The position numbers and the translations under genes were made by a program. Shown here piece after piece: positions 27,947-64,000 of a DNA stretch of 64,000 nucleotides. Positions within the stretch are counted from its first letter, which is position 1. Each line of letters begins with the position of its first letter. Under the pieces are notes generated by a model. That model ran no database searches and had not been told where the DNA came from. It saw only the letters and a list, made by a program, of their open reading frames with translations. This DNA comes from Hormiphora californensis (lineage: Eukaryota > Animalia > Ctenophora), in the NCBI GenBank assembly GCA_020137815.1, contig CM035351.1, forward strand, positions 9,914,896 through 9,978,895, in the 5' to 3' direction.

Positions 27947-28690
27947 AACGGCTAAACGGTGGGAGATACGACTTTTTGTCCGGGGGACGACCCCCCATAA
28001 ATCGACTATTCTGCGTCGAAGCATGTCCATGAAAACTTTCTAGGACCAGCTGAAGTGGAAATATTCAGAATATGCACTAAATCATGAATCGGCGCATAAA
28101 TATGCACATAACAGCTAAACGGTGGGAGATACAACTTTTTGTCCGGGGGACGACCCCCCATAAATCGACCATTTTGCGTCGAAATATGCCCATGAAAACT
28201 TTCTAGGACTAGCTGAAGTGGAAATGTTCAAAATATGCACTAAATCATGAATCGGCGCATAAATATACACATAACGGCTAAACGGTGGGAGATACAACTT
28301 TTTGTCCGGGGGACGACCCCCCATAAATCGACTATTCTGCGTCGAAATATGTCCATGAAAACTTTTTAGGACCAGCCGAAGTGGAAATATTCAGAATGTG
28401 CACTAAATCATGAATCGGCGCATAAATATGCACATAACGGCTAAACGGTGGGAGATACAACTTTTTGTCCCGGGGATGACCCCCCATAAATCGACTATTC
28501 TGCGTCGAAATATGTCCATGAAAACTTTCTAGGACCAGCTGAAGTGGAAATATTCAGAAAATGCATAAATCATGAATCGGTGCATAAATATGCAAATAAC
28601 GGCTAAACGGTGCAAGATACAACTTTTTGTCCGGGGGACGACCCCCCATAAATCGACTATTCTCCGTCCAATGCGACCAATGAAAAGCCG
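27947..28690 (+). repeat. 163-bp tandem repeat, ~4.5 copies
   Basis: aacggctaaacggtgggagatac at ~27947, 28110, 28273, 28436, 28598. Confidence 0.92.
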
Positions 28691-30042
28691 CTATCATAAG
28701 TAGAACTTGAGATATTCAGATATGCATATTGTCATAATTATGTGCATTTAACTCCTTAACGGTAAAAGTTAGAGAAAATTGTCCCGAGTAAAACCCCCCA
28801 TAAATCGAATATTTTGCGTCGGTTAGAACCGTCGATTTATCTCTAGTATGTGTCATTACCGAGATATTCATAAATTTATACATAAATTATGCATAATCTC
28901 TAATCAAGATGCCATATAGCCTACTACACACAGAATAGCTAGAGTAACCTAAGTTTAAAATTTCAGGGCTCTAGCTTTAGCCGTTTTTCCAGGCGAATGT
29001 TTGCAAAATGGTGGTGCCTTGTATGTATAGTGTCTACACAGGGTGTGTTTGGGACCCCCCTCGTAACTTTTGAACGAAACGACCGATCCACTTGAAATTT
29101 ATATCACTAACAGTAATGGTAGAGGTACCTATAACTACAAAATTTCAGCTCGCTAGCTTATCGGGAACATGGTCAAACAGGCGCTCAAAAAGGGCGTTTG
29201 TCGCATCCGTATGGTATACTGCACTGGCCCCCACTGGGGGGGGGGGGGGGGGGGGGGTAAATGAACTTCTCGCGCCGGACTTAATTGTTTCAGAGTCATG
29301 TTTTGTTATGACTGGGGATATTTTTAATGCTGGGGGCTGTGCCCCCAGACCCCCCTAAGGCCACGGGGCACTTGCCAGTGCAGTGATATAGACGCTTCAC
29401 TGTGTAACACTTGTAGCCCGAACCATACTAGCTAGAGACTTGAATTAAGTTTTATCCGTTAGCAAATCGTTCGGGGCATGCATTAGTTAAAGTTTCAAGT
29501 GAAAATGTCCACTATGACGGGCGTAATGACGTCAGAAAGTGACGTCACAAAGTGACGTCATTGAAAAAATATCAGACCAAATATTTTCAAACGCCTCTAG
29601 CACCCTCAAGAAGTATTTTGATTCCTGATTTGACGAAAAATCGTTAGTGGCAAATTGTCTGAACTTTCAGAAATTATATTGTAAATTTTTCTAACTTGTC
29701 ATTTTCAAACCTTAAAACGCGTCGGAACTCAAAAATTTGATGTTAAAATCCACATAAAAATTCACATTTAGTGCAATAACTTCAGTTCTTGACTACCATG
29801 CCCTTTAAAACTTTTCACACTTTTAGTGCTTCATAGGCCTAATAGTCTGTTATAATTTTCGACGTCATTTGTGACGTCACGTGTGACGTCACGACGTCAA
29901 AACGACGTCAAATTTTGAAAATTTCGTCAAATCAGTTTCCCACAACCCAGGATATATTTGAATTACATTTGAACACTTTAGTTGACAATTAGCTTAGTTG
30001 TTTGAGGTCATAAATGACCTCAAACGACCAAAAAAGAGTTCA

Positions 30043-35567: not shown

Positions 35568-35719
35568 CTAGGGAGAGATAGGAGAAGGTTTAAACTAAAG
35601 TTCGGAAATAGTTAGGAGGATATTGGACGAAGGAAGTTTGGACTAATTAGTTACTAATTAGTTACTGATTAGTTACTAATTAGTTGCTAATTAGTTACTG
35701 ATTAGTGCTGATTACCCTG

Positions 35720-38700
35720 GTCAATGTTAATTCGTTTGTTCCTATTCCTTAGGGGGCCGGTGGGGAGGGGGATGATTAAAACTAAAAATTGTAGTTACGC
35801 ATTAATCGCGAGGTTATCGTTACGGGCAATGGCTTTATTTTTATTTGTCCAAAAAAACAAAGGGGGGAGATCAGGGTCTTTTTTACTATTTTTTAAAGCT
35901 GGTCCATAAAAACTATAATCTAATTGCCCAAAATGACGGGGAAAATTCTGGGACAAACCCCTATCCGGGGGGGGGGACTATCGTCGGTGTGGACGGACCG
36001 TGATGCCGTTTTTCAATTTTGTGGGGAACGGGAAAAAACGTGATTCCGTTCGTGTTGGGGACACTGCTTGCGGGAAACTTTTTGAGGCTTTGAGGCGGTC
36101 CACAATTCACCATATTAAATAATTTACAGTTTAAAAAGGAAGAAGGGGGAAGTTAGGGGGGGACAGACAGGGACGAAGGGCGGGGAAAAGCCGGCTTTTT
36201 TTATTTTGTTTACTAAAATCCCAATCCCCACATCAAAAACGAAAAAAAAGAAAAAAAAAAACCACCAGTTTGAATGCACACTTTCACGTTTTTTTATTAA
36301 AAGGAAAATGAGGGGGGGGGACCCCACCCCAATTGTCTCAGGAAAATTATCACAGGGGGGGAAAAAAAAAAACAGAGGGAAGGGAAAACTTAGCGTTTCA
36401 GGAGGTAATTTCCAACCAGTCGGGTTAAATCCAAACCAAAACAATGTGCAGGGGTCAAACTTTGACTCCGTTTTGGAGGTTTAGAACCCGCCAGGGCTTT
36501 TTTTTTACAAAAAAAAAAACTCCGGGCTTTCGGCATTTTAATACAAAAATTAGGATTAAAAAAAACCTTGAGGAAAAAAAATTTTCACTTTTCATGTCTG
36601 CTTGGTTTTCGTTTTCCCACTGATGGATGCAGGGAGGGTCAAAACAGGAATCTGTTTTCTTGTCTTTCGTTTACTTGGGGAAAAAATAAGCGGTTCCCCA
36701 AAATTGGTCGATTTTCAAGCTTGCCACCCAAAAAAAATAACGGGGGGGGAAAAAAAAAAAACAGTCGTGGCCTGGAAAAAAAAAAAAAAAAACCTCCTTT
36801 CATTTTTCCGGCACCCCGATCAAAAAAATTTGGACCCTTCAAAAAAGTTTATCGAAAAAAAAAAGATTCTGTTTTAAATTAATATTTAGGGAGATCTACA
36901 AAAACATTGAGGCTCATTGTTTGAAAATAGATTACCAAAAAAGCAAAGGAGTGGGACCAGTAACCTAAAAAAAAAAAAATTAGGGGGGTGGCCCCCAAAC
37001 CGAACTTTTTGTTCGTCCTTTGGCATGGGGGGCACATATATTGCACACTTCTGTACCTGAATTGTTTAACACTTTTTCCAAAGTTTACGGGGAAAAAAAA
37101 AAATGTTTTAAAAAAAACTTTTCGTACAGGGGGCTGAAAGGCGCTGGGGAAAGCGCTTCTGAAATTGTGGGAAAAAAAAACAGTTTATTAGGGGTTTGAT
37201 TTAGCCAAAAACACATTTTTTCTTTTTTGCCACTTTTTCTAAAATCTTTTCTTTCTTTGACAATTAAAAAAAAAAAAAAAACGGGGGTTTCCTCTCTATT
37301 TTCCCCGATTCCCCCAAAAAAAAAAACCTTAGAAAAAAAAAAAACATTGTAAGCTGAGGGGGGGGGTGGGTCCATTAGGCTCTCTCTCCTTTTCTTATCG
37401 CGCCCTTCCTATCTTCGGGGCCTTCTATCTCTCTCTAATCTCCCTCTCTCTTCTCTTCGCTCTCTCTCTCTTTCTTTTCTATCTCTTTTTCAATTCCTCT
37501 CCTATTCTCTTTTCTATTATTTACATCTCCTCTATTCTCTATTTTTCCCTCTTTCTAATCTCTTAATTGGATGTTGGATTAAGGGGGTTTTCTTGCTTTC
37601 TCCCTGTTTTCCAAAAATTTTTTCTTTCTCCATTGGAGCTTTAGGCCTCTGTTATTAAGTTACTGATCGTGCCTTTGATTTCTATGGCTGAAAAGCTGTT
37701 CAGTCCACGTGAAAAAGGAAACATGCGGGCTGTTCTCTAGGCACGCCAGGGCTGTGAAAAAAACGCTTAAAAAGGCGGAGGGTTTTTTTCTCTAAAAAAA
37801 AAAAAAAAACAAACGCCCCTGTTTATGGCAGAAAAAAACAAACAAGGCTAACTCTAAGCTCCCCCGGTCTGGAATGAGCTTTGTAGCTGGAGGTTTCCCC
37901 CTTCCCCATTCTTATTTAAAAACACGAAAGTATAGCGCTCAAATAAAAAAATTAATTTTCTCAAAATTAATTAAAATAAATTTCTTTGGTGTAACTGCTT
38001 CAATCTATTAGTGGGGAAACCGGCGATTAAGGGTTTCCTTGATAAATCGGGTTTTACCGGAAAAAAAACACAAATTACACAGGGGAGGAAAAAAAATTTC
38101 CCCTTTTTGGACAAAAGGAAAAATTTAAAAAACGGTATTGTCACCCGATATATTGACCGGGGCCAAGGAACCTCGATTTAACCGGGGCGAAAAAACAAAC
38201 CTTTACCCGAGGTTATCCCCGGGTAAAAAAATCGGGGTTCGGGTTTCGGAACTGTTATTGCAAAAGAGTCTTCATTTCTCGCAAAAAAAAAAAAAAAAAT
38301 ATTTTTTAGCCCCAAATAAATTAATTAATTTATTGGAAAAAAAACAGAGTATAAGGGAATATTGTTATTAAATATTGCCACTGAAAAAAAAAAACAAAAA
38401 CTTGCTGTTTTAATAGGAACATCAAACCCACTTAACTTTCATTCAAAACACCACAAATTTTTACACCAACCACACAATCCCACCAAAGGCCTGTTACAAA
38501 CAGGTTATTGAATCCCAACCGGCTTTGTTATTCATTTAAAGCCCGCTGGGGGGCAAAGCGCAGGGCGGCCCACTTCTTCCCTGTCCCCCCAACACCCCAT
38601 ACAATTTTCCCCCAAAAAAATTAATCCCTCTAAACAAGCATATTTTTTCCTTCCAGTAAAAAAAAAAAGGAAAAAAAATAGAAAATGCGCGGAAAAAAAA

Positions 38701-39785
38701 AAAAAAATTTTTTTGGAAAAAAAATTTTTGAAAAAAAATTTTGGAAAACAAAAAAAAATTCTGAACAAAAAAGCCGCTTTACTTTATATTATTGTCTGGA
38801 AAATCGGTGATTTCCAAAACTAAGTTTTTAAGGGGGGGGGCAACAACTTCTTTTTTTCATGTTTTCCTTTAACGAAAAAACTTTGGGCACCGGCTTGTAG
38901 TTCGGGTTGGGCCTTGGGGACACCTTTAAGAAAGGCCACACGTTTCAAAAAAAAATTCATACAAATCCGGAGTTTTTTTACGGTTGTTTTTTTACCCGTT
39001 TAAACAGAAAGGGTTCGTAAATTGTTAGGACAAAAAAAATTTTGGCCCGTTTTTTAGCGTTGGGACTAAAACGACCTTTGATTTGTACGAACCTTTTTTG
39101 GGCGGTTTTTACCAAACAATAGAGGGCCACAGTTTTAAGCTATCCACCCATGAAAATTGGGGAAAGGGGGTCGGTATTCGGGTAGGGGTCTAAGGTGGGT
39201 TTTTACCTTGTTATTTAAAAGCTTGGGACAGAAGGAAAAGAGGGGGAAAAAAAAAACGAAAACAGGTCATAAAAACAAAAAAAAAGTAGGGACTGTTTCT
39301 TTAAGTTTCTTGGCGGTTTTTTAAGGGGGGGGACCCGGTTGTTTTGCCCGGGGTCGTGTCTTTACCAAAACAATTACCGCGGGGCTTCGTAACGCGGTTG
39401 TTTGGCCTTTGAACATGTCTTGAAAAACACAAACGTTCCCAAAAAAAATTTCAAGGGCTCAAGCCAAAAAAATTCCGGGAGTTTTTACGGGTTCGGTTGC
39501 CAGTTTTCATATGGGGGGGGCAGTCTTGGGGACTTACATTAAGAATTGTAAAAGGACGATTTTCAAAAAAAAAAAACTTAGGAAAAAAAAGGGAGCAAAA
39601 TTTAAAACACTATTTTAAATTTCATTTTGATTTTTATTCATACATGTTTTTTTTCCCAAAACGTGGGTTAAAAAAAAAAAAAAAAACTGATGTTTGTATT
39701 TTCAAATTTTAATGGTAGGTCAATATCTATATATGGGGGGGGGGGGGAACCTGTCTTTAAATTTAAAGGGGGGGGGGGGGACGGG

Positions 39786-39816
<31 letters not shown>

Positions 39817-42800
39817 CCCTTACAACAAAAAAAGGGAAAAGGCCGATTCATAGGTTTAAAAAAATTAACCATTGAAAATCCAGATTTAATTTTTAAATTT
39901 AAAAAGGTAGCTTTTTACTTGCCGCATTTTTCCAGTTTGTAATGGTTAGGGTTTCATGAATCTTATGTTTAGTTGTTCTATGAAGTCTTAAAATAATTTA
40001 AAGGGGGGGACGGATTTGAAAACCACCGGAGGGGAAAAGAGCGACGAAAATAGCATCTAAGAAAAAAAAAACCGGATTTTTATTTTTTCAGGGGAATAAT
40101 ATCTGATTAATTTAAAACGCTTATTTCCGTGATCCATATCCGTGGGGGGGGGGGGGGGACTAATAATCAAAATTCCATTAGGGATTTAAAATCGCGGGGG
40201 AAGAAAACCAAACGCGGGGAAAAGGAAAAAAACAAATTCGCGGGAAGGAAAAAAACCATTGTAGGATAAAAAAAAAAAACTAAAACCAAACCCCGCAACA
40301 CGATTTGGTTTACTATTATATACTTTCTTTCGCGACTTAAGTTTATCGATTTTAAAAACTGTGTCGCGAATAAGGTAAAAAACTAAGTAAAAAACCAAAT
40401 TCGCGGGCTTAAGGGGCTAATTTTTCGCGGATAAAAAAAAAAAAAAACCTAAATCCGGAATTTTAGTGATTACTAAATTCGCCGATAAAACAACTAATCG
40501 CGAGAAAAAAACTTATGGGGACGGATTTGAAATAAAAAAAAAAAATGATTAAGTTAATCCCGGCGATTGGTTGTTGCGATACTCAATATTATTTATTTTC
40601 GCGGCATTTTGGAATATACGAGATGGGGAATTCTTGTGGCGATTTATATGGGGGGACCCGCGTTTTAAAATTAGCTAGTAATTACCCAAAAAATGTTACA
40701 ATTGCAGGGGGGGCATTTTTATTAATTTAGTATGTATAAACCAAAAAATTGGGGGGCCTGATTACTAAGATTCCCAAAAAAAAACCCAAAAAAAAAACAA
40801 GGGTTGGGTGGGATAAAAAAGGGTCGGGCCGCAGGAAAAATAAAAAAAAAAACGTGCGGAAACGTTTAATTTTACATGGAAGTTTCGGGGGGCCTGGGGG
40901 GAGTTTTTTTGCGGTTAAATTCGCCGTTCCTTTTTTTGATAGTTAAAAGGGCCGTCTTGCAAAAAAAAACCCACCAACTATTAAAGATATTTATAAAAAA
41001 CACGTATTAAAAATTATATTTAATTATCCAGGAAAATTTTTATAATTATTCGTAAAAAAACCCCCAGGGGGGACTATGAAAAAAAAAACGACCCAATTGG
41101 CAAACCAGTAAGTCTATTTGTTGGGATGGGAGTGGGGACACCATGTGGTGGATGTGGGAAAAACAATGTTCCCACATCCAAATTTTTATTTATTCCAACA
41201 TTATCACATGGTCACTGACATGTGATGTATAATGTGGATAAAAATTAATGGTTTGACATTGCAACTAGGGGGTTTTTCCTTGGGCGATTAGTTTGGGGGG
41301 AAAAAAAAGTGGGGTAATTGGGTTATTTAAATTGGTTATATAAAATTTATGATACGGCGAATTTACAAAAAAAACCAGCCACCCCAGGTACCGAAAAAAA
41401 AGTTTTTGTATTCAAAAAAACTTTTTCAGCCCCCCCCGTTTTTTTTTTTAAAATTTTGCCGGCCACGGCGATTTCACAACACAACTTTGTTTTGGTTTTG
41501 GGAATTTTTCTTAGTTAACTGTGTCTAAAAAGGGAGTGGAAAAATATAATCGGGTTTTCTGGGGAATTGGACGTCCTGCGGAAAAAAAAACCCACGTGCA
41601 AAAATACCGTTTGCTGTGTAAAAACCGTGACCGTTTCTCGTTAAAACCGTACCCGTGTACAACCTTTTTTTTACTGTGTTAACCGAACCGTAACTGGTTA
41701 AAAAACCGGTATGTACCCTCCGTTAATTAATTTTCAGGAAACTATCCCGGGATAAATAGCAGGGAAACTGGTATCCTCGGATCCCGTGGTTGGGGGCCCC
41801 AGGGATCGGGGGGGAACCCCTGAATGGAAGGGGAACTGGGAGGAAAACCACAAAAAAAATAAAAAAAAAACTGTTAAAAATAAGATTAAAAAAACTACCC
41901 AATTGGTAGAGGTTTTAGTTAGGTCTTCTTGATAGTGCCGTGGTTAATGCCGCTCCCCCCACATCCTTCCTCTTCACTTCCTTTATAACCTTCCTCGTAA
42001 GGGCTCGGTCTGCAGTCATAACATTTTCTTTGGGATGTTCCAAAAAACAAGTCCTGGTGTTTGTGTCTTGAAAACAAAAAACTAAGCGGCCAATCTCTAA
42101 AAACCCAATTATTATCTTGAACCGTGGAGGAAACGGAATGATGGATTAGTTGTTGGGGAACTGCTCCGGCCGGGGCTTGGGGCAATCTTAGAATTGTAAG
42201 ATCTGATTCTAAAGGTGACAAAAAGGAATTCCTTGATGGCGAAGGGGGGGGCATGTGTCTTCTTGGGGGGACGTGGGATTTGGGAGTTGGCTCCAATCTT
42301 CAATTACTACTACCTTACTGGGGTTTGTGATCCTTGCTGGTTGGAGATCCCCCCTGTCTTCATTAGGGTTAAAACATTGATTTTTTCTCTGTCCGTTTGA
42401 TCTCTAGGAGAGTTTTCTTTTTTGCCACCCTTAAAAAAACAAACAAAAAACCATTTTGGGGGCCCACATTGCCCACACATAACATGGCAATGTGACCCCA
42501 ACTCTTCTATATATAATGGGTTCAAATATCTTCCCCAAACCCCAACTCTTCCAACCCCAACCCTTTCTTTTTCTCTTTTCCAACTGTTTTTTTTAAAAAA
42601 ATTTGACTCGCTTCTAAAAAAAAACCATTTAAAAACAAAATCAAACCAAAAACTTTGCAGCACGGAAAGGAGGGCCGGTTCCACTAATTTATCGTGCAAG
42701 GGGATCCGGAAAAGCTCATTTGATAAACACAAAATTATTTGTTGACCCCGCAAAAAAATGTACAAGTTGGCGTGGAAGGGTTTGCTTGTCAAAGCGGGGC

Positions 42801-45050
42801 CAAATTTCCAGGGGGACGGGGCCATAAGATCCACCCCCTGATAAGCTTTAGAAGACTCGAAAAAAATTGGTTTTGGTTAAAGGGAAGGACAGTTCGGTCT
42901 TTTCTTACACCAAAAAACAAATTTTCAAAACAAGGTTTCTACTCTCCCAGGGAAGGTGTCGAAAGGTTGGTTGTTTTGTTAAAAACAAGGGGCTAGGGAC
43001 GGGGGGAAACTGGGGGGTTGGGGGAGAATGGCAGTTAACCTTCATATTAACAGTAAACGGCAAAAAATAAAACATTTATTTAATAGGAGGGGGGGGGGAC
43101 TAGAAAACAGGCCCAATTGGTTAGTCTTAACAAACAACCCCCCCAACCCCCGTCTCTTATAGTCTACGCCCCCCCCACACTCTTTCGTCTCTCCATTTGT
43201 TCGGGTTTTAAAAGGGGGGAACTAAAAAATAATACGGAAGGTTTTTGGGGTAGTGGAGAAGCGGGCTGGTTATTCACAAGAAAATCCCCGCTGAAAAACC
43301 AACGTAAGGGTAAAAAAATCAGGTGATAAAAAAAATATACGTAAAGGAGTTGTAGCTTGTTGTAGAGGGTAATTTCAAAAAAACGGGGGGTACCGTAGGT
43401 TTTTTAGAAAAAAAGGCCTTTTGGGCAAAAATTTCATGGGCGGGGGGACCTCAAGCAGTTAATTAGATTCCCAATTAAACACAACAGGAACAACAACACG
43501 GGTGGAAACCCACGCAAACAAAAACCAAAACGGAAAAAACCAAAAAAAAAAACATGCACCGTGCCAGTATTCCCCAAAAACAAAAACCTCCCAATACCCC
43601 TTTTCCCCCAGGCCAACCTCTTGGGCCAACCCCTCTATTTTTGGCACGGGAATACTAATCCTCATCCTCTCCCCCACGCCACGGGCTTTGCAATTATTGT
43701 TTTAATTAAGGAAACTAGAAAGGCCGTTGAAAAAAGGTAGAGGCACCCGTTGGGGACCCAAAAACACCAAAAAACTCTCCTTCCACCAGGGGAGGCAACC
43801 CTCTCACCCACGGGTGCAAACCCAAAAACCCGCCACGTTTGGGGGGCAAAAAAAACCTCCAATTAAACCCCTTCCCCAGGGGAAGCCACTCTTGGGCAAA
43901 AACCCCCCTCTATTTTGGCAGTTTGCAAAGTGTGGGGGATAGGGGGGGGGACATCATTCACCGGCCACGCATTTGTACTTTATTATATTTAGAAACTGGG
44001 AAAAGGGGCCCATGTTTAAAAGTTCCTAAAAAAAAAAAAAAAAACAGCCCCCCCCTGCCCCCCCCCCCCCCGGTCTCTTATGTCTTCTCTCCCCTCTCCA
44101 CCTCTTCGTTCTCTCCTGGTCGGGGGTTAAAAGGAATAGTACGGGAGGGGTGGTTTTAAGTTGGTAGGAGGCCCGCTATTAAAAACAATTTTTCAAAAGG
44201 TTAATCCGCTTTGAATTTAAAAAACAGTAAAGAATTCATTGGGGGCCCCGATTTTAAAAGATCCGTTTTAGGGAATTTGTAGCGGTGTTTAGGGGGGAGG
44301 GAATCAAAAACGGGGGTACGTAGGGTAGAAAAAGGGCTTTGGCAATCATTTTGGGGGCAGGCCCCCAGGCAGAGGATTCCCAAAAAAAAATGTTGGAAAC
44401 AACCACAGGAAACAACCACAGGGAAAAAAAAAACAAACGCAAAAACAAAACAACCAAAAAAAAAAAAAAATTGGGCACGTTGCAGTAGTTATTCTCCCTT
44501 CCCTTAAACCCCTCCCAAAGAGTAATTCTTGTAATAGGGGAATTTTCTAAGGGAATGAAAACAGTTTTTGGGGGGGGCTATAGCAGGTTGGAATCACGTT
44601 ATAATTAATTGTAACACAAATTTAAGCAGGAGAGTAAAAAAAACCCCCTTTAAAACTTCTCACTTTAAAAAAAAAGCAAACATATTGCTTAACAACATCC
44701 CCCTATTTTTTTTAAGCGATATGTGAGTGTTGAAATGATTTTTACGTTCTTCATCCTTCTTCACAGCTTGCATTGGTGTGAACCAGTGTTCTTACTTGCA
44801 GGTTTGTTCAAAAATAAATAAGAAGTATTTGAATTGCTTTATAGGCTATTAGTTCATAAACGTTGTTCGTTTTTTAGCAACACCAGGGGGCTCGTTCCAA
44901 TAAAAAACACTAATAAAAACTGTGCGTTTTATTAACCCTTCAGGGGGACTGGGGGAGCTGTAGAGCCGGGGTGTTTTTGAAGGATTTACCCTGGAACCTG
45001 GAGGGAACAAAAACACCTTCCAGAAAAAGACTACACAGGGGATTTAGTGG
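35720..45050. other. Low-accuracy, homopolymer-inflated sequence
   Basis: Elements known elsewhere in the window reappear with stretched runs (MITE at ~38010-38240; Helitron unit at 43100-44520). Confidence 0.85.
43099..44520 (-). mobile_element. Error-laden tandem copies of the 20011-21340 Helitron unit
   Basis: ctagaaa..ggccc, ggggtacgtaggtagaaaaggctttggcaatcat and cacgccacg motifs in the same order. Confidence 0.75.
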
Positions 45051-47664: not shown

Positions 47665-48884
47665 TAATTCGATTCGATCTTCAAGCGATCAAAAAGTTTT
47701 CGATTCGATCTTTGGGCGATCAAAAAATATCGATTCTATCTGGTATGGATCTTTGAGCTCAAAATACTACTAGACGGTGAATGGCGAAGGCATCAATATA
47801 ATACAATATGCACATATGTGTATAAACCTCAAAGTGATCGGCAAAGAATAACAATTAGCAGCCCAATGAGTAATTGTCGTTGAGTAAATCGAGTTGTAAC
47901 AGTTTTGACTTTTGCTTGCAGTTACACATAATGCTTGTACATAGTTACACACTATATGAAACCCGATAGCTGATTTATCAGTCGTTTGAACATTTTCGCG
48001 CGCATCGATAACTGCGAGCTGGGGATTTTACCACCTGCTCGCTATTTATCAGACCAGTACCCTTTTCACGCGTTTCTTTCATTTCATAAAATGGTGTGGA
48101 ATTTCCAAGTAATGAAAATGCGTGTAAACACACAGTTCTGTCAATAACAGAGAGGGGAACACATCTGCAACACTTTTCAATGTTCTCTCTCTCAGTCTCT
48201 CATCAAGAGGCAAAATAATCACATTCCATTCGTTTTCTCTCTCTCATTCTCTCTTTTACGTTCAATATCTCTCATGTGTGTATTGGCCCCATCTTGCTCT
48301 CTCTTACTCAAATATGTAAGGAACAGTTGCAAACTAGGTGCCAGTTAGTCTACACACACAGTTGTGGGAACGTCTTTTGACTATTGCCAGCAGTCATTGT
48401 GGTTTCACTTGTGTTGTGTCTCTATGCGTGTAATAACATCGGTTTCATAAATATGAAGGTTTGTTAGCCTATCGCGTTATAGGTTTAAATCCACCTCCCT
48501 CACCCTCGGACTAGATGCCCTCGGGATCGGCGTCGGGATTTTTAAACCAGTTAATCGCCCTGCCGGCGATTTCAACTCTGATTGGCTGTCCCCAGCTTGC
48601 GCTGTGAACAGCCAACTTGATAACGCGCCAGTCTACAAACGTTCATAGTTCATTTAGCGTATAATGTAGATTCGTTCTGGGCAGGTTTTAGAACACATGG
48701 ATAATTGGAATTGTCTTCTGAACGAAATTCGGATAGGGGGAAGGGGGTCTGAGAAATTCGGACAGGCTTGGACAAAGGGGAGGGAGGGGGGGGGGGTAAA
48801 AAAGGACTAAAATCATGGACCTCCTTTTTGAATCGCCCCTAACATTACTACAACTCATTATAGGTGTATTACATTGCACTGGCA

Positions 48885-50021
48885 ATGTTCAATGAAACAA
48901 TAACGGAATTTACAACATCGTGGTTTGATTTCTTTAACAGAACCGAGGGACCTACTACTGAAGAAGCCAACACTGATGAAGTCTTCCCGTTTGACTGTCT
49001 CCCGGGAGGAGCTGCTGTGATTTGTGTTGTAGTGGGAATCATACTAAACACTGCTGTCCTCCCATACTTCATTTCCAAAATCAAACAAAGCAGAACTCTG
49101 TCCAATTTGTTTTATACCATCATCTCAGCGACAGATCTGGTGGTTTCCATTCTAACAATATTTTACACAACCACTCTCTTCACCCAACAGCCAGGTGCCT
49201 TCAAATCAGTTAAATTCTGTACTGCCTGGTCTGTCCTCTGGGGTGTTTTCACTAAACTCACAATCCTCCTTGTCTCTCTCCTGTCAATCTATAGGACAAT
49301 CCTGATACTCGACCCTCTCCAGAGCACCATCTCCTTCCGACCCTCTCGTACCTTCCTTGGGGTAGTTGCTGTGGGCAGTGCAGCGGTGTTTTTAGCAGCA
49401 GAAACGGTGCCGTTATGGTTCAGTGGACAGATAATGTGGTATTACGATTGGTTTCGACATAGGTGTGAGTGGTATGAAGTAGGCCCACACTGTGAGGTTC
49501 ATGTACCATTCGCCGGTATTTATGTGTGGAATGCGGTTACCATTGGTCTCCCACTGCCCGTGGTTACCATAGCAACAAGTCTGTCCATATATGGTCTGGT
49601 AGGGAGATCCTCCCTAAACCATTACCGGGAAAGCAACACAGTTCTTCTTTTCTCTGCGGTCTACATGGTCCTCAATATTCCCGTGTTTGTGTACCATGTT
49701 GTCATGGTGATAGAATTCTCCACGGGGTGGGAGGCCAAGTTGCTCGATTTTGATCATCCTAATTACTACTTTTTCACATTTGTGGAGCTGATTGTGGTGT
49801 CACTTAACAGCGCCGCTAATCCCATGATATATCTGGTGAGAATGACAGAGTTGAGGAGATTTATGAAGGAGCAGTACTTTGGAAGGTTGAGGAGACTGGT
49901 GACAGCAGATCATCATATCACCATGGTATCACGGAATGCTACAAAGTCTACCAGTGTTACTGCAGCTGGTGGTGGAGCGGGGGAGAGTTCAAATAATTAT
50001 GTTGCCAGTTCCCGAATATAA
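48885..50021 (+). CDS. Intronless class A (rhodopsin-like) orphan GPCR, 378 aa
   Basis: 7 hydrophobic segments; GIILN (TM1), SATDL (TM2), C..W and SIYRT (TM3), NSAANPMIY (TM7); N-glycosylation sequons NET and NRT; ATG at 48885. Confidence 0.92.
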   Translation: MFNETITEFTTSWFDFFNRTEGPTTEEANTDEVFPFDCLPGGAAVICVVVGIILNTAVLPYFISKIKQSRTLSNLFYTIISATDLVVSILTIFYTTTLFTQQPGAFKSVKFCTAWSVLWGVFTKLTILLVSLLSIYRTILILDPLQSTISFRPSRTFLGVVAVGSAAVFLAAETVPLWFSGQIMWYYDWFRHRCEWYEVGPHCEVHVPFAGIYVWNAVTIGLPLPVVTIATSLSIYGLVGRSSLNHYRESNTVLLFSAVYMVLNIPVFVYHVVMVIEFSTGWEAKLLDFDHPNYYFFTFVELIVVSLNSAANPMIYLVRMTELRRFMKEQYFGRLRRLVTADHHITMVSRNATKSTSVTAAGGGAGESSNNYVASSRI

Positions 50022-53517: not shown

Positions 53518-56280
53518 CGTGTGTGTGCTTGTATGTAATACGGTGCGTGTCTAGAATACTTTAATAAGATTATAAACTTTGTCAAGTCTTTTAGTTCAAG
53601 CTACTATTCCTTATCTACCTTTTTTCACTTAGCTTCTCTCTCTTATCCTCTCTCTAATCTCTACTATCTCTCTACTCTATATCTATCTCTCGATCCCTCT
53701 CTCTCACTCTCTATCATCTACTCTCATATACTCTGAATACATATATGTCCATAAATAGAGCGAGAGCCACACCAGACATCCCTTCAGTTTTTCGAAACCG
53801 AAATCTGACTCTCTCTCTCTCCATGTCTTAACTCTCTTGCACGGCTGCAGTTTTCTAACAAGCCTGAAATAGCATGTCACTAGATACAAATTTTATATTA
53901 TTAAACCACATTCAGCCACCTCACACTCTCTGGTCATCTCCGCACCCATATGTATTAAGCTCGCTGCCTTTCTATATGTTCCCCATTTTATTGTGTATAT
54001 TTGCCACCTTCTGCCACCACTGGTTTTGGATTGGAGGAAGCCGATGCCGACTGTGCTATCGAAACTGACGACGAAACATCCTCCCCCTTTCTTTTAGGGA
54101 GGCTATCACCGCTACGCTTCTTCTTGCTTCTACTGTTGTCCTTGTAGGAGGTAGTCCAATCTGAGTGCTCCTTCATAAACTATAAACTGCTCCGTCATAA
54201 ATCGCAAAAGTACTTTAATGCATCGAAGTACAGTCGGCCACCCGATTTAGTGGCATCTTCGGGGAAAATCCTGCCACTAAATGGGGTGCACTAATCAGGG
54301 GCCACTATATCGGATTCATAAAGCAAGAATTATTACTTCCCAGAAAAATTAAGTGTGGTAAGTACGGAAAACCTTATGACTGAAAACTGAGGTTATGTAT
54401 TCTTATCATAATTCACTGAAGTTTTATGCAGATGAAACACTGCGGTTTAGTCACGCTTTTCCAATGTCCCATGGATAGAATGGTATTACAGTTCTCTAAT
54501 TTGAAGAAATGTGAGTCCATATTGCCGTGGCAGGTATTGCCATTCTTAACGTAGAATTGGGCGACGTAGAATCTTTATAATGTCATTTGTTGTTTTGACG
54601 TACATTTATTTGTCTTAGATTGTGCTAATAATTTACCATTTAAGCAGTTTGAAAAGCACAATTATAGCAGAATCACCACCATCTACCTCGCAAGGTGTGT
54701 GTCACGATAGTCATGGTTGTGTGAAGTAGAGCTCAACGGCGGCAGGAGCTCTATTATAAGGCCTGCTTTTCCTGAGTGTGCGGTTAAGCTATCTCCCGTT
54801 ATAGTCCAAAGATAATTAAGGGGACGTTAAATTACGGCTAATTAAAAGGAGGCTTGATAAAATGAGCTCAAAACTTCTAAATTTGTAACTATAACTAAAA
54901 CCATGCCGTTTTGTTGTTGTAGTATCGATACGTTTGCGATGAATAGTTTGGGAAAATACCGCAGATACAATGCCAACTGCCAACCCTTAAATGGTTTTGA
55001 TAATACCGTTTTCACCACCCTTGGAGCAAGATACCAAAAATTGGAGAAAGCAAGTACAGTAGTGAATATCAAGAAAATAATTAGCAAGAAGCCCTTTTTG
55101 TTAGTATCTAGTGAACCTGAAATTATTTTCAGTTACTTTTTCTTTGGTGTTTTTGATCACTTACACTAATGACTGAAGTAGTGCATCTAGCTGTGTAATG
55201 ACACCACATAATCCTAGGAGTACCTTCCCGCCTGCATATATTCGACCTTGGCCACATTGATGCCTGAGTGAGATCGAGGTCGCGCAGCGACGAGGTCGAT
55301 CTCACATCTAGGCTCGGCGCGTTATTGATTTAGAGCAAACTTTTTCAAGACCTGGCTGCAAGAATACTGAACCGATTTGCATCTCGTTGTGTTCCTGGCA
55401 GACAATTGTCTATAGTTCACGGAAAATACCCGCGAGTATCAGCATTTGAGGAATAGTGGGTCAAAATGACGCTAAACATGAGCAATGCTTTAAAGAACTG
55501 GCTGCAAGCTCTACTCGGTCCTGGACAATCTGCGGGTACTGGGGAATCGTCATGGCCTTGTGAGTATGGGAAAATACCCGCGATCATCACGATGCGAAAT
55601 GAGGCGATAATTGACGTTTGAGTAGGCTAGGTCAGCTAAAAACCGTTCAAAAACGGTCTATCACGCGCGATCTGCTGGAAAACGTGCTTTATATCGCGCA
55701 ACGTGAGTTTGGCTCTCAACGGGCGGCATCCTATTATTCGCGGAGCGAGAATAGGATGCGATGGATCCAAATCTCGACCCTTTTCCTGACTCGTATATAA
55801 TAAACCGCGCGGTTACGGTTGTTGTTCTCCTCCCAACTATATATTTGACACCTCCCAATATTTGTTAAACAAGTCTTAATTCCCCTCATTTAAATTTGGC
55901 CTCATAAAATTTGAAAAATCTCTACTTCCCCCAATATTCCCCAATGAATTGCATAGTAATTAATTAATTAATTAGATTTCCCCTCTTCTCAGTTGGCGCT
56001 ATGACCCCTGTTCAAAAGGAAAAAGAAGGAGATTCCTCCACCCCCTGCACCCCAAGAAGTACCCGGAAGATATGAGGTTCTTTTTGGCCACACAAACGCT
56101 TTCAAAACGATCAATTGTATAGCTGGAAATATATGGTTCTTTTCACCAAAGCTTGAATCACTCGTTCGAACTAGTAGTTCGCCTTCCGACGTGAATCACA
56201 CACAATACCAACTATATAAACTCTCTCCACTCCCCTGAGATCCCTATTATAGTGGGTTGTTTTATATAAAACTTCCACAG

Positions 56281-56550
56281 AACACAGTCCTGAGGGATCT
56301 GTTGCAGAAGAAGCCCCAGCTGTAGCTGATGAACCCGCTTGCTGAAGTCCCTGTAGCTGAACCTGAGGAACCAGTGACTGAAACCTGAGGTAGCAGCTGA
56401 GGAACCAGTGGCTTGAACCTGAGGAACCAGCGACATGAACCGAGGCAGCAGTTGAGGAGCCTGAGGTTACTGAACCTGAAGTTGCTCCTGAGGAGCCTGA
56501 GGTCACTGAACCTGAGGAACCAGCCGAAGAAGAAGATGGATCTGGTGAAG
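56281..56550 (+). CDS. Glu/Pro/Ala-rich repeat exon (indel errors) of the gene hosting the tandem array
   Basis: ccacAG|..EEAPAVADEPA..EEPEVTEPEVAPEEPEVTEPEEPAEEEDGSGE|GTAGG. Confidence 0.65.
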
Positions 56551-56644
56551 GTAGGATAACACAATGAACTCGACAAAATTTTATTTTACTTACTACAGTA
56601 AGTAAAATTAAATTTTATTTTGTAAAGCAATAATCACCGTTGTC

Positions 56645-59600
56645 AAATAAATCGGGGTGTTCCGAGAGACTGATCCTAAACTGAGCCAATACACACAGCT
56701 AGAGCGGAGAGTCACCGTCATGGTGTGCACTATCACCAGGGTCACATATACAGTCGATGGGGTTGACTATACTCTCAACGCATCTAGCCTCTGCCAACAT
56801 GTCATGGTGTTGCACTGCCAGGAACCCTCCAACTCCGATTCCTTGTTTAACTAGCCGTACAGCAAGGATCTCGGCTGGATTCGTCTCAGACTAGGCACAT
56901 ATTCCAACACGATAGTAGCAGGAGAGATCAACACTTATACCAAGCACACAGGGTAGAAACAATCCTTGTGTTCTGGATAAGATAACATTTTTCTCTAGGT
57001 AGTGTGTATCGGACATCAGTAGGCCCCATTATAATTGGTATTTAACACAGTCAAACTCGAGAGAGTACAATGTTATTGATACTTGATTGATAAATCGGGG
57101 TGTTCCGAGAGACTGATCCTAAACTGAGCCAACTACACACGCTAGAGCGGAGAGTCACCGTCATGGTGTGCACTATCACCAGGGTCACAATATACAGTCG
57201 ATGGGGGTTGACTAAAACTCTCAACGCATCTAGCCTCTGCCAACATGTCATGGTGTTGCACTGCACGGAACCCTCCAACTCCGATTCCTTGTTTAACTAG
57301 CGTACAGCAAGGATCTCGGCTGGATCGTCTCAGACTAGGCACATATTCCAACACGATAGTAGCAGGAGAGATCAACACTTATACCAGCACACAGGGTAGA
57401 AACAATCCTTGTGTTCTGGATAAGATAACATTTTTCCTAGGTAGTGTGTATCGGACATCAGTAGGCCCCATTATAATTGGTATTTAACACAGTCAACTCG
57501 GAGAAGTACAATGTTATTGATACTTGATTGATAAATCGGGGTGTTCCGAGAGACTGATCCTAAACTGAGCCAATACACACAGCTAGAGCGGAGAGTCACC
57601 GTCATGGTGTGCACTATCACCAGGGTCACAATATACAGTCGATGGGGTTGACTATAACTCTCAACGCATCTAGCCTCTGCCAACATGTCATGGTGTTGCA
57701 CTGCACGGAAACCTCCAACTCCGATTCCTTGTTTAACTAGCCGTACAGCAAGGATCTCGGCTGGATTCGTCTCAGACTAGGCACATATTCCAACACGATA
57801 GTAGCAGGAGAGATCAACACTTATACCAAGCACACAGGGTAGAAACAATCTGTGTTCGGATAAGATAACATTTTTCTCTAGGTAGTGTGTATCGGACATC
57901 AGTAGGCCCATTATAATTGGTATTTAACACAGTCAACTCGGAGAAGTACAATGTTATTGATACTTGATTGATAAATCGGGGTGGTTCCGAGAGACTGATC
58001 CTAAACTGAGGCAATACACACAGCTAGAGCGGAGAGTCACCGTATGGTGTGCACTATCACCAGGGTCACAATATACAGTCGATGGGGGGTGACTATAACT
58101 CTCAAAGCATCTAGCCTCTGACAACAAGTCATGGTCTTGCACTGCATGGAACCCTCCAGCTCCTATTCCTTGTTTAACTAACCGTACAGCAAGGATCTCG
58201 GCTGGATTCGTCTCAGACTAGGCACATATTCCAACACGATAGTAGCAGGAGAGATCAAACTATACCAAGCACACAGGGTAGAAACAATCCTTGTGTTCTG
58301 GATAAGATAACATTTCTCTAGGTAGTGTGTATCGGACATCAGTAGGCCCCATTTAATTGGTATTTAACACAGTCACTCGGAGAAGTACAATGTTATTGAT
58401 ACTTGATTGATAAATCGGGGTGTTCCGAGAGACTGATCCTAAACTGAGCCAATACACACAGCTAGAGCGGAGAGTCACCGTCATGGTGTGCACTATCACC
58501 AGGGTCACAATATACAGTCGATGGGGTTGACTATAACTCTCAACGCATCTAGCCTCTGCCAACATGTCATGGTTGCACTGCACGGAACCCTCAACTCCGA
58601 TTCCTTGTTAACTAGCCGTACAGCAAGGATCTCGGCTGGATTCGTCTCAGACTAGGCACAATTCCAACACGATAGTAGCAGGAGAGATCAACACTTATAC
58701 CAAGCACACAGGGTAGAAACAATCCTTGTGTTCTGGATAAGATAACATTTTCTTAGGTAGTGTGTATCGGACATCAGGAGGCCCCATTATAATTGGTATT
58801 TAAACAGTCAACTCGGAGAAGTACAATGTTATTGATACTTGATTGTAAATCGGGGTGTTCCGAGAGACTGATCCTAACTGAGCCAATACACACAGCTAGA
58901 GCGGAGAGTCACCGTCATGGTGTTGCACTATCACCAGGGTCACAATAACAGTCGATGGGGGTTGACTATAACTCTCAACGCATCTAGCCTCTGCCAACAG
59001 TCTGGTGTTGCACTGCACGGAACCCTCCAACTCCGATTCCTTGTTTAACTAGCCGTACAGCAAGGATCTCGGCTGGATTCGTTTCAGACTAGAGCAATAT
59101 TCCAACACGATAGTAGCAGGAGAGATCACACTTATACCAAGCACACAGGGTAGAAACAATCTTGTGTTCTGGATAAGATAACATTTTTTCTTAGGTAGTG
59201 TGTATCGGACATCAGTAGGCCCCATTATAATGGTATTTAACAACAGTCAACTGGAGAAGTACAATGTTATTGATACTGATTGATAAATCGGGGTGTTCCG
59301 AGAGAGACGATCCTAAACTGTTCTACCCTGTGTGCTTGGTATAAGTGTTGATCTATCCTGCTACTATCGTTGGAATATGTGCTAGTCTGAGACGATCCAG
59401 CGAGATCCTTGCTGTACGCTATTAACACGGAATCGGAGTGGAGGGTTCCGTGCAGTGAACACCATGACAGTTGCAGAGGCTAGATGCGTGAGAGTTATAG
59501 CAACCCCATCGACTGTATAGTGACCCTGGTGATAGTGCACACCATGACGGGACTCTCGCTCAGCTGTGTGTATGGCTCGTTAGGATCAGTCTCTCGGAAC

Positions 59601-62600
59601 ACCCCGATTATCACAAGGATCAATAACATGTACTCTCCAGTTGACTGTGTTTAAATACATTATAATGGGGCCACTGATGTCGATACACACTACCTAGAGA
59701 AAAAGTTATCTTATCCAGAACACAAGGAGTTTCTACCCTGGTGCTTGGTATAAGTGTTGATCCCTGCTACTATATGTGTTGAATATGGCCTAGTCTGAGA
59801 CGAATCCAGCCGAGATCTTGCTGTACGGCTAGTTAAACAAGAACGGAGTTGGAGGTCCGTGCACGTGCAACACCATGACATGTGTGGCAGAGGCAGATGC
59901 GTTGAGAGTTATAGTCAACCCCATCGACTGTATATTGTGACCTGGTGATAGTGCACACCATGACGGTGACTCTCCGCTCTGCTGTGTGTATTGGCTCAGT
60001 TTAGGATCAGTCTCTCGGAACACCCCGATTTATCAATCAAGTATCATAACATTGTACTTCTCCGAGTTGACTGTGTTAAATACCAATTATAATGGGGCCT
60101 ACTGATGTCCGATACACACTACCTAGAGAAAAATGGTATCTTATCCAGAACACAAGGATTGTTTCTACCCTGTGGCTTGGTATAAGTGTTGATCTCTCCT
60201 GTACTATCGTGTTGGAATATGTGCCTAGTCTGAGACGAATCCAGCCGAGATCTTGCTGTACGGCTAGTTAAACAAGGAATCGGAGTTGGAGGGTTCGTGC
60301 AGTGCAACACCATGACATGTTGGCAGAGGCTAGATGCGTTGAGAGTTATAGTCAACCCCCCATCGACTGTATATTGTGACCCTGGTGATAGTGCACACCA
60401 TGACGGTGACTCTCCGCTCTAGCGTGTGTATTGGCTCAGTTTAGGATCAGTCTCTCGGAACACCCGATTTATCAATCAAGTATCAATAACATTGTACTTC
60501 TCCGAGTTGACTGTGTAAATACCAATTATAATGGGGCCTACTGATGTCCGATACACACTAACTAGAGAAAAATGTTATCTTATCCAGAACACAAGGATTG
60601 TTTCTACCCTGGTGCTTGGTATAAGTGTTGATCTCTCCTGCTACTATCGTGGTTGGAATATGTGCCTAGTCTGAGACGAATCCAGCCGAGATCCTTGCTG
60701 TACGGCAGTTAAACAAGGAATCGGAGTTGGAGGGTTCGTCAGTGCATGCAAACCATGACATGTTGGCAGAGGCTAGATCGTGAGAGTTATAGTCAACCCC
60801 CATCGACTGTTATTGTGACCCTGGTGATAGTGCACACCATGACGGTGACTCTCCGCTCTAGCTGTGTGTATTGGCTCAGTTAGGATCAGTCTCTCGGAAC
60901 ACCCCGATTTTCAATCAAGTATCAATAACATTGTACTCTCCGAGTTGACTGTGTTAAATACCAATATAATGGGGCCCTACTGATGTCCGATACACACATA
61001 CCTAGAGAAAAATGTTATCTATCCAGAACACAAGGATTGTTTCTGACCTGTGTGCTTGGTATCAGTGTTGATCTTTCTGCTTCTATCGTGTGGAATATGT
61101 GCCTAGTCTGAGACGAATCCAGCCGAGATCCTTGCTGTACGGCTAGTTAAACAAGGAATCGGAGTTGGAGGGTTCCGTGCAGTGCAACACATGAATGTTG
61201 GAGAGGCTAGATGCGTTGAGAGTTATAGTCAACCCCATCGACTGTATATTGTGACCTGGTGATAGTGCACACCATGACGGTGACTCCGCTCTAGCTGTGT
61301 GTATTGGCTCAGTTTAGGATCAGGCTCTCGGAACACCCCGATTATCAATCAAGTTAATAACATTGTATTCTCCGAGTTGACTGTGTAAATACCATTATAA
61401 TGGGGCCTACTGATGTCCGATACACACTACCTAGAGAAAAATGTTATCTTATCCAGAACACAAGGATGTTTCTACCCTGTGTGCTGGTATAAGTGTTGAT
61501 CTCTCCTGCTACTATCGTGTTGGAATAGGGCCTAGTCTGAGACGAATCCAGCGAGATCCTGCTGTACGGCTAGTTAAACAAGGAATCGGAGTTGGAGGGT
61601 TCCGTGCAGTGCAAACCATGACATGTTGGCAGAGGCTAGAGCGTTGAGAGTTATAGTCAACCCCCATCGACTGTATATTGTGACCTGGTGATAGTGCACA
61701 CATGACGGTGACTCTCCGCTCTAGCTGTGTGTATTGGCTCAGTTAGGACAGTCTCTGGAACACCCCGATATCAATCAAGTATCAAAACATTGTACTTCTC
61801 CGAGTTGACTGTGTAAATACCAATATAATGGGCCTACTGATGTCCGATACACACTACCTAGAGAAAAATGTATTTATCCAGAACACAAGGATTGTTTCTA
61901 CCCTGTGTGCTTGGTATAAGTGTTGATCTCTCCTGCTACTATCGTGTTGGAATATGTGCCTAGTCTGAGACGAATCCAGCCGAGATCCTTGCTGTAGGCT
62001 AGTTAAACAAGGAATCGGAGTTGGAGGGTTCCGTGCAGTGCAACACCATGACATGTTGGCAGAGGCTAGATGCGTGAGAGTTATAGTCAACCCCCATCGA
62101 CTGTATTGTGACCCTGGTGATAGTGCACACCATGACGGTGACTCTCCGCTCAGCTGTGTGTATTGGCTCAGTTTAGGATCAGTCTCTCGGAACACCCCGA
62201 TTTATCAATCAAGTATCAATAACATTTACTTCTCCGAGTTGACTGTGTTAAATACCAATTATAATGGGGCCTACTGATGTCCGATACACACTACCTAGAG
62301 AAAATGTATCTTATCCAGAACACAAGGATTGTTTCTACCCTGTGTGCTTGGTATAAGTGTTGATCTCTCCTGCTACTATCGTGTTGGAATATGTGCCTAG
62401 TTGAGACGAATCCAGCCGAGATCCTTGCTGTACGGCTAGTTAAACAAGGAATCGGAGTTGGAGGGTTCCGTGCAGTGCAACACCATGACATGTTGGCAGA
62501 GGCTAGATGCGTTGAGAGTATAGTCAACCCCCATCGACTGTATATTGTGACCTGGTGATAGTGCACACCATGACGGTGACTCTCCGCTCTAGCTGTGTGT

Positions 62601-62980
62601 ATTGGCTCAGGTTAGGATCAGTCTCTCGGAACACCCCGATTTATCAATCAAGTATCAATAAACATGTACTTCTCCGAGTTGACTGTGTTAAATACCAATT
62701 ATAATGGGGCCTACTGATGTCCGATACACAACCTAGAGAAAAATGTTATTCTATCCAGAACACAAGGATTGTTTCTACCCTGTGTGCTTGGTATAAGTGT
62801 TGATCTCTCCTGCTACTATCGTGTTGGAATATGTGCCTAGTCTGAGACGAATCCAGCCGAGATCCTTGCTGTACGGCTAGTAAACAAGGAATCGGAGTTG
62901 GAGGGTTCCGTGCAGTGCAACACCATGCATGTTGGCAGAGGCTAGATGCGTTGAGAGTTATAGTCAACCCCCATCGACTG
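56645..62980. mobile_element. TSD-flanked multimeric insertion of a ~444-nt structured non-coding unit (~6 copies, inversion at ~59320, ~8.3 copies)
   Basis: AATCACCGTTGTC at 56632-56644 and 62981-62993; period ~440-444; copies differ mostly by single-base indels. Confidence 0.9.
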
Positions 62981-63090
62981 AATCACCGTTGTCCATTTTT
63001 CTTTAATCTCATCAATTCTATCCTTCCTTTCATTTAAAAAATCACCCATTCACCCATTCAAGAGCCTGTTATTTACCTACCTCACTTCAG

Positions 63091-63504
63091 AGCCACCTGT
63101 CCCTGTGGAGACTCCATCTACAGGAGAGGATGCTGAGGAGGTCCTCTCTACACCTGCCATGAGATCACCACGGACCCAATGGGCGAGGAGAGTAAGTAAT
63201 TAATTAGTAATTTCAGTTTAATTAATAAAACAGAAACATACTATACTTATTGTACATTTGGTACATCATATTTTGAGTTTATCATTATTACATTGTTGTT
63301 ATTATAATGTTTCTTAGGACGGAGCAAGTCAGCGTGGAACTGACGGCAGTACCGGTTATCTTTGGAGTCATCAAAAAGGGCCCTTACATTGTGCCCCAAT
63401 GCGCACCCAAGTGGCTAAAAACACTGAAAAAGCAGAAGTGGGCCAGCCAGTTTGCAGAGTGGACCCCGATCTTTTCCAAATTTTCTGCTGCGATCAGGCT
63501 AAAG
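63091..63504 (+). CDS. Downstream exons (63091-63191, ~63319-63504) of the Glu/Pro-rich gene
   Basis: cttcAG|(E)PPVPVETPSTGEDAEEVLSTPA..|GTAAGT, phase-compatible with the donor at 56551; frame of the next exon uncertain. Confidence 0.55.
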
Positions 63505-64000
63505 GTACTGTGGGAAATTTTTATCTTTTGATTTGTTAAAATCTTCTTCATTTGACACTTAATTAACAAATTAACTCATTAGATAATCGATTAGTTTGTA
63601 ATCTAATTGATAATTTCCAGGGAAGCTGTATGAAGAGCATACCCCCGTTGAGACTGACGGAAAATGTATGTTTTTCCATCTCAATCACTACACGTCTGTT
63701 AGTGTGGGGGATGAGGATCCAAAGGCAAAGGAATTTACCTTCAAGGTATATGTTCACGATTACATTACCCCTAGATATTGTCTGGTTGAGGAGGGGGGGG
63801 GGACAGTTTCTCTAAAATAAACAGTCGTAACTGAAACTCAGTTTTCAGTATTGACCCTCCGTATTTAAACACTATAAACTTCCCTCCACCGAGGGACGGG
63901 TGTCTGAATGGGTGCGAGGAAAAAACACAGTTACGTCTCTACCCTACCAATGAGGAGGGGAAAAGTGGTGTTAAAACAATCAAAACGGGACCCATTAACA

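Follow-up and report, generated by a model that had tools for sequence, protein, structure and literature searches.

The described systems closest to the element reported here are Penelope-like elements (PLEs) with their non-autonomous derivatives, and the metazoan retrozymes without long terminal repeats (non-LTR retrozymes). The element is a tandem array of a 442-nt non-coding unit that interrupts an intron of the ctenophore Hormiphora californensis (assembly GCA_020137815.1, contig CM035351.1), within a 64-kb stretch of DNA (forward-strand positions 9,914,896 to 9,978,895) referred to as the window and numbered from its first letter. According to the papers cited here and below, PLEs form incomplete tandems beside which a 5'-truncated copy lies inverted, and their non-autonomous derivatives form multicopy head-to-tail insertions (PMC8557442). 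Rotifer PLEs have target site duplications (TSDs) of 8-10 bp, are mostly head-to-head and can mobilise in trans (PMC3846280), while Naiad and Chlamys PLEs show tandem or inverted insertions and carry no canonical hammerheads, two ctenophore Naiads being named in the supplement (PMC8557442). [quoted passage not shown] The defining feature of non-LTR retrozymes is a type I hammerhead in every unit (PMC7229834; 10.64898/2026.07.22.740005), and the retrozymes of Metazoa were tied to PLEs by a 2026 preprint (10.64898/2026.07.22.740005). Both the mechanism of tandem and inverted PLE insertion and the mobilisation of retrozymes by PLEs are stated as open (PMC8557442; PMC7229834; 10.64898/2026.07.22.740005).

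The array is likely one young insertion of a dispersed, transcribed, non-coding repeat, apparently a non-autonomous parasite of a PLE, with priming at both of the nicks in its target. It comprised ~14.5 units, ~6.1 in the left arm and ~8.4 in the oppositely oriented right arm, and had the layout known from PLEs, a tandem with an adjacent inverted copy, head-to-head and within a TSD (Table 1). The duplicated 13-mer, AATCACCGTTGTC, occurred exactly twice in the window and not at all on the opposite strand, and both copies abutted the array. The nick sites read GATT/ATT on the bottom strand and GTC/CATT on the top strand (slash marking the nick), and the inversion joint had 2-nt microhomology (TG), assuming the loss of a single T in a TTT run. 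The array contained no poly(A), terminal inverted repeat (TIR) or LTR, its ends were neither TC/CTAG, TIRs nor direct terminal repeats, and its longest stop-free frame was only 115 aa. Unit open reading frames (ORFs) of 45-80 aa differed among copies, with a Pfam match in none of the three tested. Primer-template homology was found at neither TSD-adjacent junction, and the unit had no BLAST match elsewhere in the window, including the one reverse transcriptase (RT) ORF listed in Table 1. Removal of the insert left host exons that were phase-compatible through a split Glu codon (G/AG). This anatomy is that of the original prediction, an annotation made from the letters of the window, which had described ~14 copies with one inversion between perfect 13-bp repeats, without poly(A), TIR, LTR or long ORF, and a GT-AG intron of ~190 bp restored by excision. 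The host gene has exons at 56280-56550, 63091-63192, 63319-63503 and 63623-63746, the first being a Glu/Pro-rich repeat exon; two exons returned no Pfam match or database homologue.

Table 1. Positions of the array, its internal motifs and related features in the 64-kb window.
Feature	Position	Strand	Remark
Host GT-AG intron	56551..63090	+	191 bp minus insert; remnants 78% and 66% AT
Left TSD copy, 13 bp	56632..56644	+	exact repeat within 64 kb
Two A without counterpart in the unit there	56645..56646	+	untemplated or target-derived
Left arm, ~6.1 units	56647..59320	- (putative RNA sense)	proposed cDNA priming at top-strand nick
Small hairpin UCGG-AACACC-CCGA, AC-only loop	56652..56665	-	5 nt inside left end; predicted locally
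Pyrimidine tract with AG/GTAGTG, acceptor fused to donor-like site	56988..57004	+	once per unit
Copy F4, mosaic	57973..58411	-	10/23 clean substitutions, alignment columns 39-213 (175-nt block)
Inversion junction, arms head-to-head	59319..59322		unit columns ~36 and ~318 meet
Right arm, ~8.4 units, inverted relative to left	59321..62980	+ (putative RNA sense)	proposed priming at bottom-strand nick
RNA polymerase III (Pol III) A-box-like TGGCTCAGTTTAGG	62164..62177	+	example copy, one per unit; 1 mismatch to consensus
B-box-like GTTAAATAC	62247..62255	+	example copy, 83 nt downstream of A-box-like motif; 1 mismatch
AC-rich hairpin UAUAGUC-AACCCCCAUC-GACUG	62959..62980	+	3' arm cut by array right end
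Right TSD copy, 13 bp	62981..62993	+	exact repeat within 64 kb
Open 438-aa RT frame, RVT_1 + DUF6451	16686-18002	-	presumably an RTE-like long interspersed nuclear element (LINE)
Copies of a miniature inverted-repeat transposable element (MITE)	773-922, 11550-11725, 12800-12939, 25602, 30198, 31070, 47485, 54229

The insertion is real and young. A search with positions 56645-57972 listed 24 sequencing runs, 20 of them (from 11 studies) with the stretch; eight of the 20 were RNA, and six were compared in detail (X1, X5, X12, X15, X17 and X18), three of these being RNA. The remaining four (X21-X24), including a possible RNA run labelled organism A, had next to no query words, which is not proof of absence. 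In X1, possibly the source sample and hence not independent, the left junction was bridged by a 583-nt contig of depth 9.9 (56094-56676), running through the TSD and 32 letters of insert. In X5, from another study, letters 17-172 of a 504-nt contig (depth 349.2) were placed on 56489-56644, and letters 161-464 of a contig of equal length and depth on 62982-63270, with 12 of the 13 TSD letters in the overlap of the two placements. Because this 12-letter overlap corresponds to one copy of the duplicated sequence, X5 has the empty site, in an allele or copy that has diverged; the host gene exons, too, were covered in X5 by diverged alleles or copies. A single retro-insertion with a long TSD had been predicted, along with an empty allele holding one 13-mer copy, and both are borne out. 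The spanning of both junctions, judged on contigs, was seen for the left only: neither the right junction nor the inversion was bridged by any contig among those listed, and X1 yielded no right-flank contig, although a filter may have removed one.

The unit length was 442 nt in two RNA runs (X17 and X18) and 438 nt in a third (X12), correcting the ~444 nt given before. The copies in the window measured 422-443 nt on account of deletion errors, and their pairwise identity as assembled was 83-96%. Relative to the column majority, the 13 full copies had 125 deletions, 118 substitutions (many next to gaps) and nine insertions, and none of the 23 clean-flanked substitutions across 15 aligned copies was common to two copies. 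With deletions so far in excess of insertions and no shared clean substitution, the differences look like long-read noise. The predicted near-identity of the copies looks correct underneath that noise for all but copy F4, which is not clonal and on which the prediction fails; two of its substitutions equal family variants present in other runs. F4 may be a polishing mosaic, a product of gene conversion or a template switch; if real, it fits a linear or switched template. At position 56800, 13 of the 15 aligned copies had T, while A made up 69% and T 31% of the summed depth in X1, and A accounted for all or nearly all depth in X5, X12, X15, X17 and X18. As the T is common to 13 copies, the array was probably amplified from one variant template, and this array-private T fits a circle or a young master array alike.

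The unit belongs to a dispersed family that occurs in two organisms, many of its genomic copies being truncated. In DNA runs, organism A and organism B gave 22-405 contigs on one unit plus flank, many of them loose-ended, in agreement with the predicted occurrence of other loci with different junctions. The boundaries were placed from the loose ends listed (18 of 49 and 14 of 56). Among these, boundaries of other loci clustered at 62971-62980, beside the right end of the array (six in X1 and six in X5), although 62980 is also the reference edge and pools some of them. The same cluster appeared within a continuous unit, where five contigs carried GGGGGTTGACTATA and diverged thereafter. The opposite boundaries were scattered among the listed loose ends (56844, 56914, 56930 and 57027). 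Summed contig depth in X5, which is no copy number, fell away from the right-end phase from 84.6k to 46.4k, 16.9k and 5.1k, and across the left-end phase from 20.8k to 3.6k. Together, boundaries and depth hint at two start sites with one-sided truncation. Contrary to the original prediction that the array ended at unrelated phases, its right end appears to lie at a preferred phase common to other loci, and its left end probably does as well, on weaker signs. A fixed end at 56647, considered from the loose ends, was discarded as partly a reference-edge effect, a 236-nt X5 contig crossing that phase. Two opposite-strand joints in other runs (X5 and X15) suggest further inverted insertions.

The unit was also found in RNA. 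Each of the three RNA runs examined, from three studies, gave one self-closing contig with a 30-letter overlap, of 468 nt in X12 and 472 nt in X17 and X18. No host flank had depth in any of the three, and X18, an oligo-dT library, had one extra piece of 151 nt at depth 2. The truncated variants dominating the DNA runs were missing from the RNA runs, which argues against DNA carry-over without excluding it. Since linear multimers assemble into the same closed-contig signature (10.1101/2022.07.19.500677), a closed contig is no proof of a covalent circle, and contig data carry neither strand nor expression level. The circular RNA of the original prediction is compatible with the unit-length cycles in all three RNA runs, which a linear multimer would have given equally.

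None of the ribozymes searched for was found in the unit. An Rfam scan returned only two chance snoRNA matches (E 7.8-8.2), and a relaxed type I/III hammerhead descriptor gave no match on either strand, as anticipated from the lack of a visible canonical core. Patterns for hepatitis delta virus-like (HDV-like) ribozymes, hairpin loop A and the twister core were not found, while a pistol pattern gave three matches in four scans, each differing among noisy copies, and nothing consistent; these custom-made descriptors could miss a divergent ribozyme. Only one CUGAUG-like core was seen; the fold places it in a paired region, and its sequence differs in RNA run X17. Circular folds were branched, with 62-70% of bases paired, z-scores of -1.3 to -3.4 (six folds) and no rod. 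Variants were mapped on predicted pairs (12 in all); those of the RNA cycles kept pairing in 3/4 cases on the putative RNA strand and 0/2 on the other, a tiny sample. No relatives were matched in viral contigs (two patterns), metagenome contigs, prokaryote genomes or plasmids, and 24 candidate relative loci were dropped, their similarity being a 17-mer plus a few bases only.

The array is thus not a retrozyme by definition, no known ribozyme having been found. It shares with metazoan non-LTR retrozymes, as described in two papers (PMC7229834; 10.64898/2026.07.22.740005), a non-coding tandem unit of a few hundred nt (~150-450 class) with <50% GC, a TSD of >4 bp, up to dozens of copies, presence in RNA and a proposed mobilisation by PLEs through rolling reverse transcription on a circle. 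It differs in that their units carry the type I hammerhead and their circles were shown by northern, as opposed to contig cycles here, and the head-to-head two-arm form was not encountered in those descriptions. The closer match is to PLEs. Head-to-tail multicopies, an adjacent inverted copy and a variable TSD are shared with non-autonomous PLEs (Chlamys-N/MRC1, Naiad clade; PMC8557442). An AT-rich target is common to PLEs more widely, and the hints of truncated 5' sides and of a pair of RT starts inside the unit, at AC-rich hairpins, resemble what is described for them (PMC8557442; PMC3846280; PMC11167929); Naiad and Chlamys also have no canonical hammerhead (PMC8557442). As this insertion anatomy is that of PLEs and their non-autonomous derivatives, the suggestion of an undescribed class of mobile circular RNA was not upheld. 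Differences from PLEs are that both array arms are long multimers and that Pol III-like boxes stand against the described promoter in the pseudo-LTR (pLTR); kinship to an autonomous partner is putative. A ribozyme-free tandem element of such kind was not described in the literature searched, most subscription papers lying outside that search, and the accessible literature on endogenous viroid-like elements and ctenophore hammerheads had nothing on the array element.

Both junctions, read inward from the target 3' ends, enter the same unit strand, so cDNA synthesis would have begun at both ends on RNA of a single polarity. Target priming at either end would imply the opposite strand as template, i.e., the plus strand of the window in the right arm, and with a template on that strand the arms run in opposite directions, with their 5' sides at the joint. 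In the proposed mechanism, a PLE endonuclease would nick both strands of the AT-rich intron 13 bp apart. Both target 3' ends would then serve as primers on the same RNA strand, reverse transcription beginning at two favoured sites inside the unit, one for each end, ~105 nt apart and at AC-rich hairpins. The two cDNAs would extend over ~6 and ~8 units and then join head-to-head through the 2-nt microhomology. Arms of this length require a multi-unit template, which could be a circle on which the RT made several rounds or a linear multimer produced by read-through of a tandem master locus. The scattered opposite boundaries of other loci and the decay of depth in X5 are as 5' truncation predicts. 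Rolling on a circle has been proposed for retrozymes (PMC7229834), and a multi-copy linear mRNA for PLE tandem loci (PMC11167929). Between circle and linear multimer the balance is near even here, the circle being given slightly less than an even chance.

Several motifs in the unit bear on this mechanism. In the hairpin at the right end, 6/8 pairs had predicted pair probabilities of 0.94-0.98, and its position coincides with the main boundary cluster; in two RNA runs, X17 and X18, the left-end hairpin has the loop AACCCC (A>C at 62633). Read-through transcription by Pol III is possible, as faintly suggested by the A- and B-box-like motifs and a near-absence of T4 runs, of which the putative RNA strand had none beyond two apparent errors in 14.5 copies (T4-free shuffles, 10%). 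For a tRNA-derived short interspersed nuclear element (SINE), which would combine a tRNA-like head, bearing the two boxes, with a 3' tail, the signs are mixed: the box-like motifs are present, ARAGORN found no tRNA genes at default settings and made inconsistent calls when relaxed, and the unit has no 3' tail. The AG/GTAGTG motif lies on the strand opposite the putative template; its shuffle frequency was 0.004 for a motif picked post hoc, and its +3 base is T in organism B. In the left arm it lies in host-gene sense, where it could disturb host splicing or yield back-spliced unit-length circles. Back-splicing at this AG/GT as the source of circles was rejected, both for that +3 difference and for its strand, opposite to the template that the priming geometry requires.

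A number of points weigh against a PLE-driven insertion. No autonomous PLE or shared pLTR was found, a genome-wide search not having been made, and nine short unit motifs had no match in the supplement text of PMC8557442, in which long sequence runs appear cut. The two start sites lie ~105 nt apart, compared with a 30-40-nt tail in PLEs. The left-end hairpin has a probability of 0 in the whole-circle fold, at least two AC-loop hairpins arose in 6% of shuffles, and the hairpin argument was made after the ends were seen. The fold itself is just modestly better than shuffled, the depth steps come from summed contig depth and the boundaries from partial lists. The block of family-type variants in F4, although maybe a polishing mosaic, could not be made by pure rolling on one circle, and the right junction is unbridged among the listed contigs. 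Twin priming by a LINE gives a similar inversion, and an RTE-like RT lies within the window.

A more novel reading, less likely than not, keeps a Penelope-type enzyme and makes the RNA circular: an abundant ~440-nt circular RNA of a ctenophore-like animal, with no ribozyme or a new one, would have been copied in rolling fashion by a dimeric RT of that type from both target strands at once.

An RT of a LINE, for example of RTE type, that twin-primed on a multimeric or circular RNA is unlikely. L1 twin priming yields similar inversions. A variable TSD of 13 bp, an internal inversion with microhomology and the RTE-like RT ORF at 16686-18002 all speak for this route. Against it stand the absence of a poly(A) or simple-repeat tail, the lack of primer-template homology at either junction and the apparent position of both ends at recurring internal phases, and the unit has no BLAST match to that ORF or elsewhere in the window.

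A DNA route has a slim chance. Here, a small extrachromosomal circle or satellite unit would have been multiplied by rolling-circle replication, through a Helitron, a Replitron or repair capture, before insertion into a staggered break. Tandem multimers require no RNA, and Replitron-1 produces variable TSDs (PMC10288648); Replitrons, however, have been described in plants, algae and protists, and no TSD was seen in other families (PMC10288648). Like the array, non-autonomous Helitrons and Replitrons form head-to-tail arrays of short non-coding units. An example stands in the same window, at 20011-21340, where three 448-bp units, ~85% alike, have Helitron-type ends on the minus strand (5' TC, 3' CTAG) and are inserted between A and T without a TSD; an empty paralogous site lies at ~18458. 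The array is unlike this trimer, with a 13-bp TSD, an inversion, a non-integral number of units and ends that are neither TC/CTAG, TIRs nor direct terminal repeats, which makes a rolling-circle origin from DNA less likely. Moreover, the RNA runs gave one clean cycle, without the truncated copies dominating the DNA runs. The unit and the local MITE family have the 11-mer TAAATCGGGGT in common, at the start of the left arm, a point in favour of a DNA route; an origin of the unit from this MITE was rejected, merely an 11-mer being shared.

It is improbable that the real insertion is short and that its length, inverted layout or number of copies was inflated by a chimeric long read or during assembly. 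The assembly is noisy, errors peak directly after the inversion (copy R1, 51 differences), and the right junction and inversion are those unbridged among the listed contigs. A fold-back read, on the other hand, would not re-enter the correct right flank with its TSD, the arms differ in the phase at which they stop, X1 covers the left junction at depth 9.9, and in that run the T specific to the array accounts for 31% of the summed depth at 56800. Sequence at ~35700-44700 is garbled and homopolymer-rich (63-70 long runs per 4 kb vs 1-15 elsewhere), as in a low-quality, unpolished assembly.

The predicted endogenised viroid-like agent is unlikely, and an autonomously replicating viroid-like host RNA endogenised many times is the least credible reading of all: size, lack of coding capacity, a DNA counterpart as in the retroviroid CarSV, about two-thirds of bases paired and head-to-tail contigs that close at 438-442 nt in marine RNA runs of three studies without host flank recall viroids, CarSV and viroid-like covalently closed circular RNAs (10.1101/2022.07.19.500677), whereas no ribozyme was found in either polarity, the fold is weak and branched with no rod, no relatives appeared in viral, metagenome or prokaryote contigs, and the DNA family is transposon-like, with TSDs and many truncated copies in two organisms.

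Other features of the window were recorded as well. A degraded look-alike of the Helitron-type trimer lies at ~44050-44430, and the MITE family has inverted ends of TA-CAGT(C/T)GGACCCCGATTTA and internal TAAATCGGGG repeats. An intronless rhodopsin-type G protein-coupled receptor (GPCR) lies at 48873-50018 (plus strand); its nearest Atlas cluster is mostly Ctenophora, which points weakly to a ctenophore host, and a homologue search was empty. A near-perfect (97.7%) inverted duplication of 1.6 kb spans 5819-9644; within it, a frame of 382 aa (7032-8180) weakly matches the integrase C-terminal region. A candidate long palindrome was seen by eye at 34000-35310, centred at ~34655, and is missing from the window self-BLAST list, and a tandem array of a 163-bp unit (~4.5-5.5 copies) occupies 27932-28821.

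The locus is a clean footprint that combines both nick sites, both apparent RT starts and the joint, and it supplies a natural RNA on which a purified PLE protein can be assayed. Should the RNA be circular and have no known ribozyme, it would hold either a self-cleaving motif not described before or a novel way of forming circles. A retrozyme-like life cycle could then run without a hammerhead, its circles arising through an unknown catalytic fold or a host enzyme, and some of the 'orphan' circular contigs in marine metatranscriptomes would be RNAs of animal transposons. Circular contigs without ribozymes in plankton RNA call for caution in any case, as they can be transcripts of host transposons.

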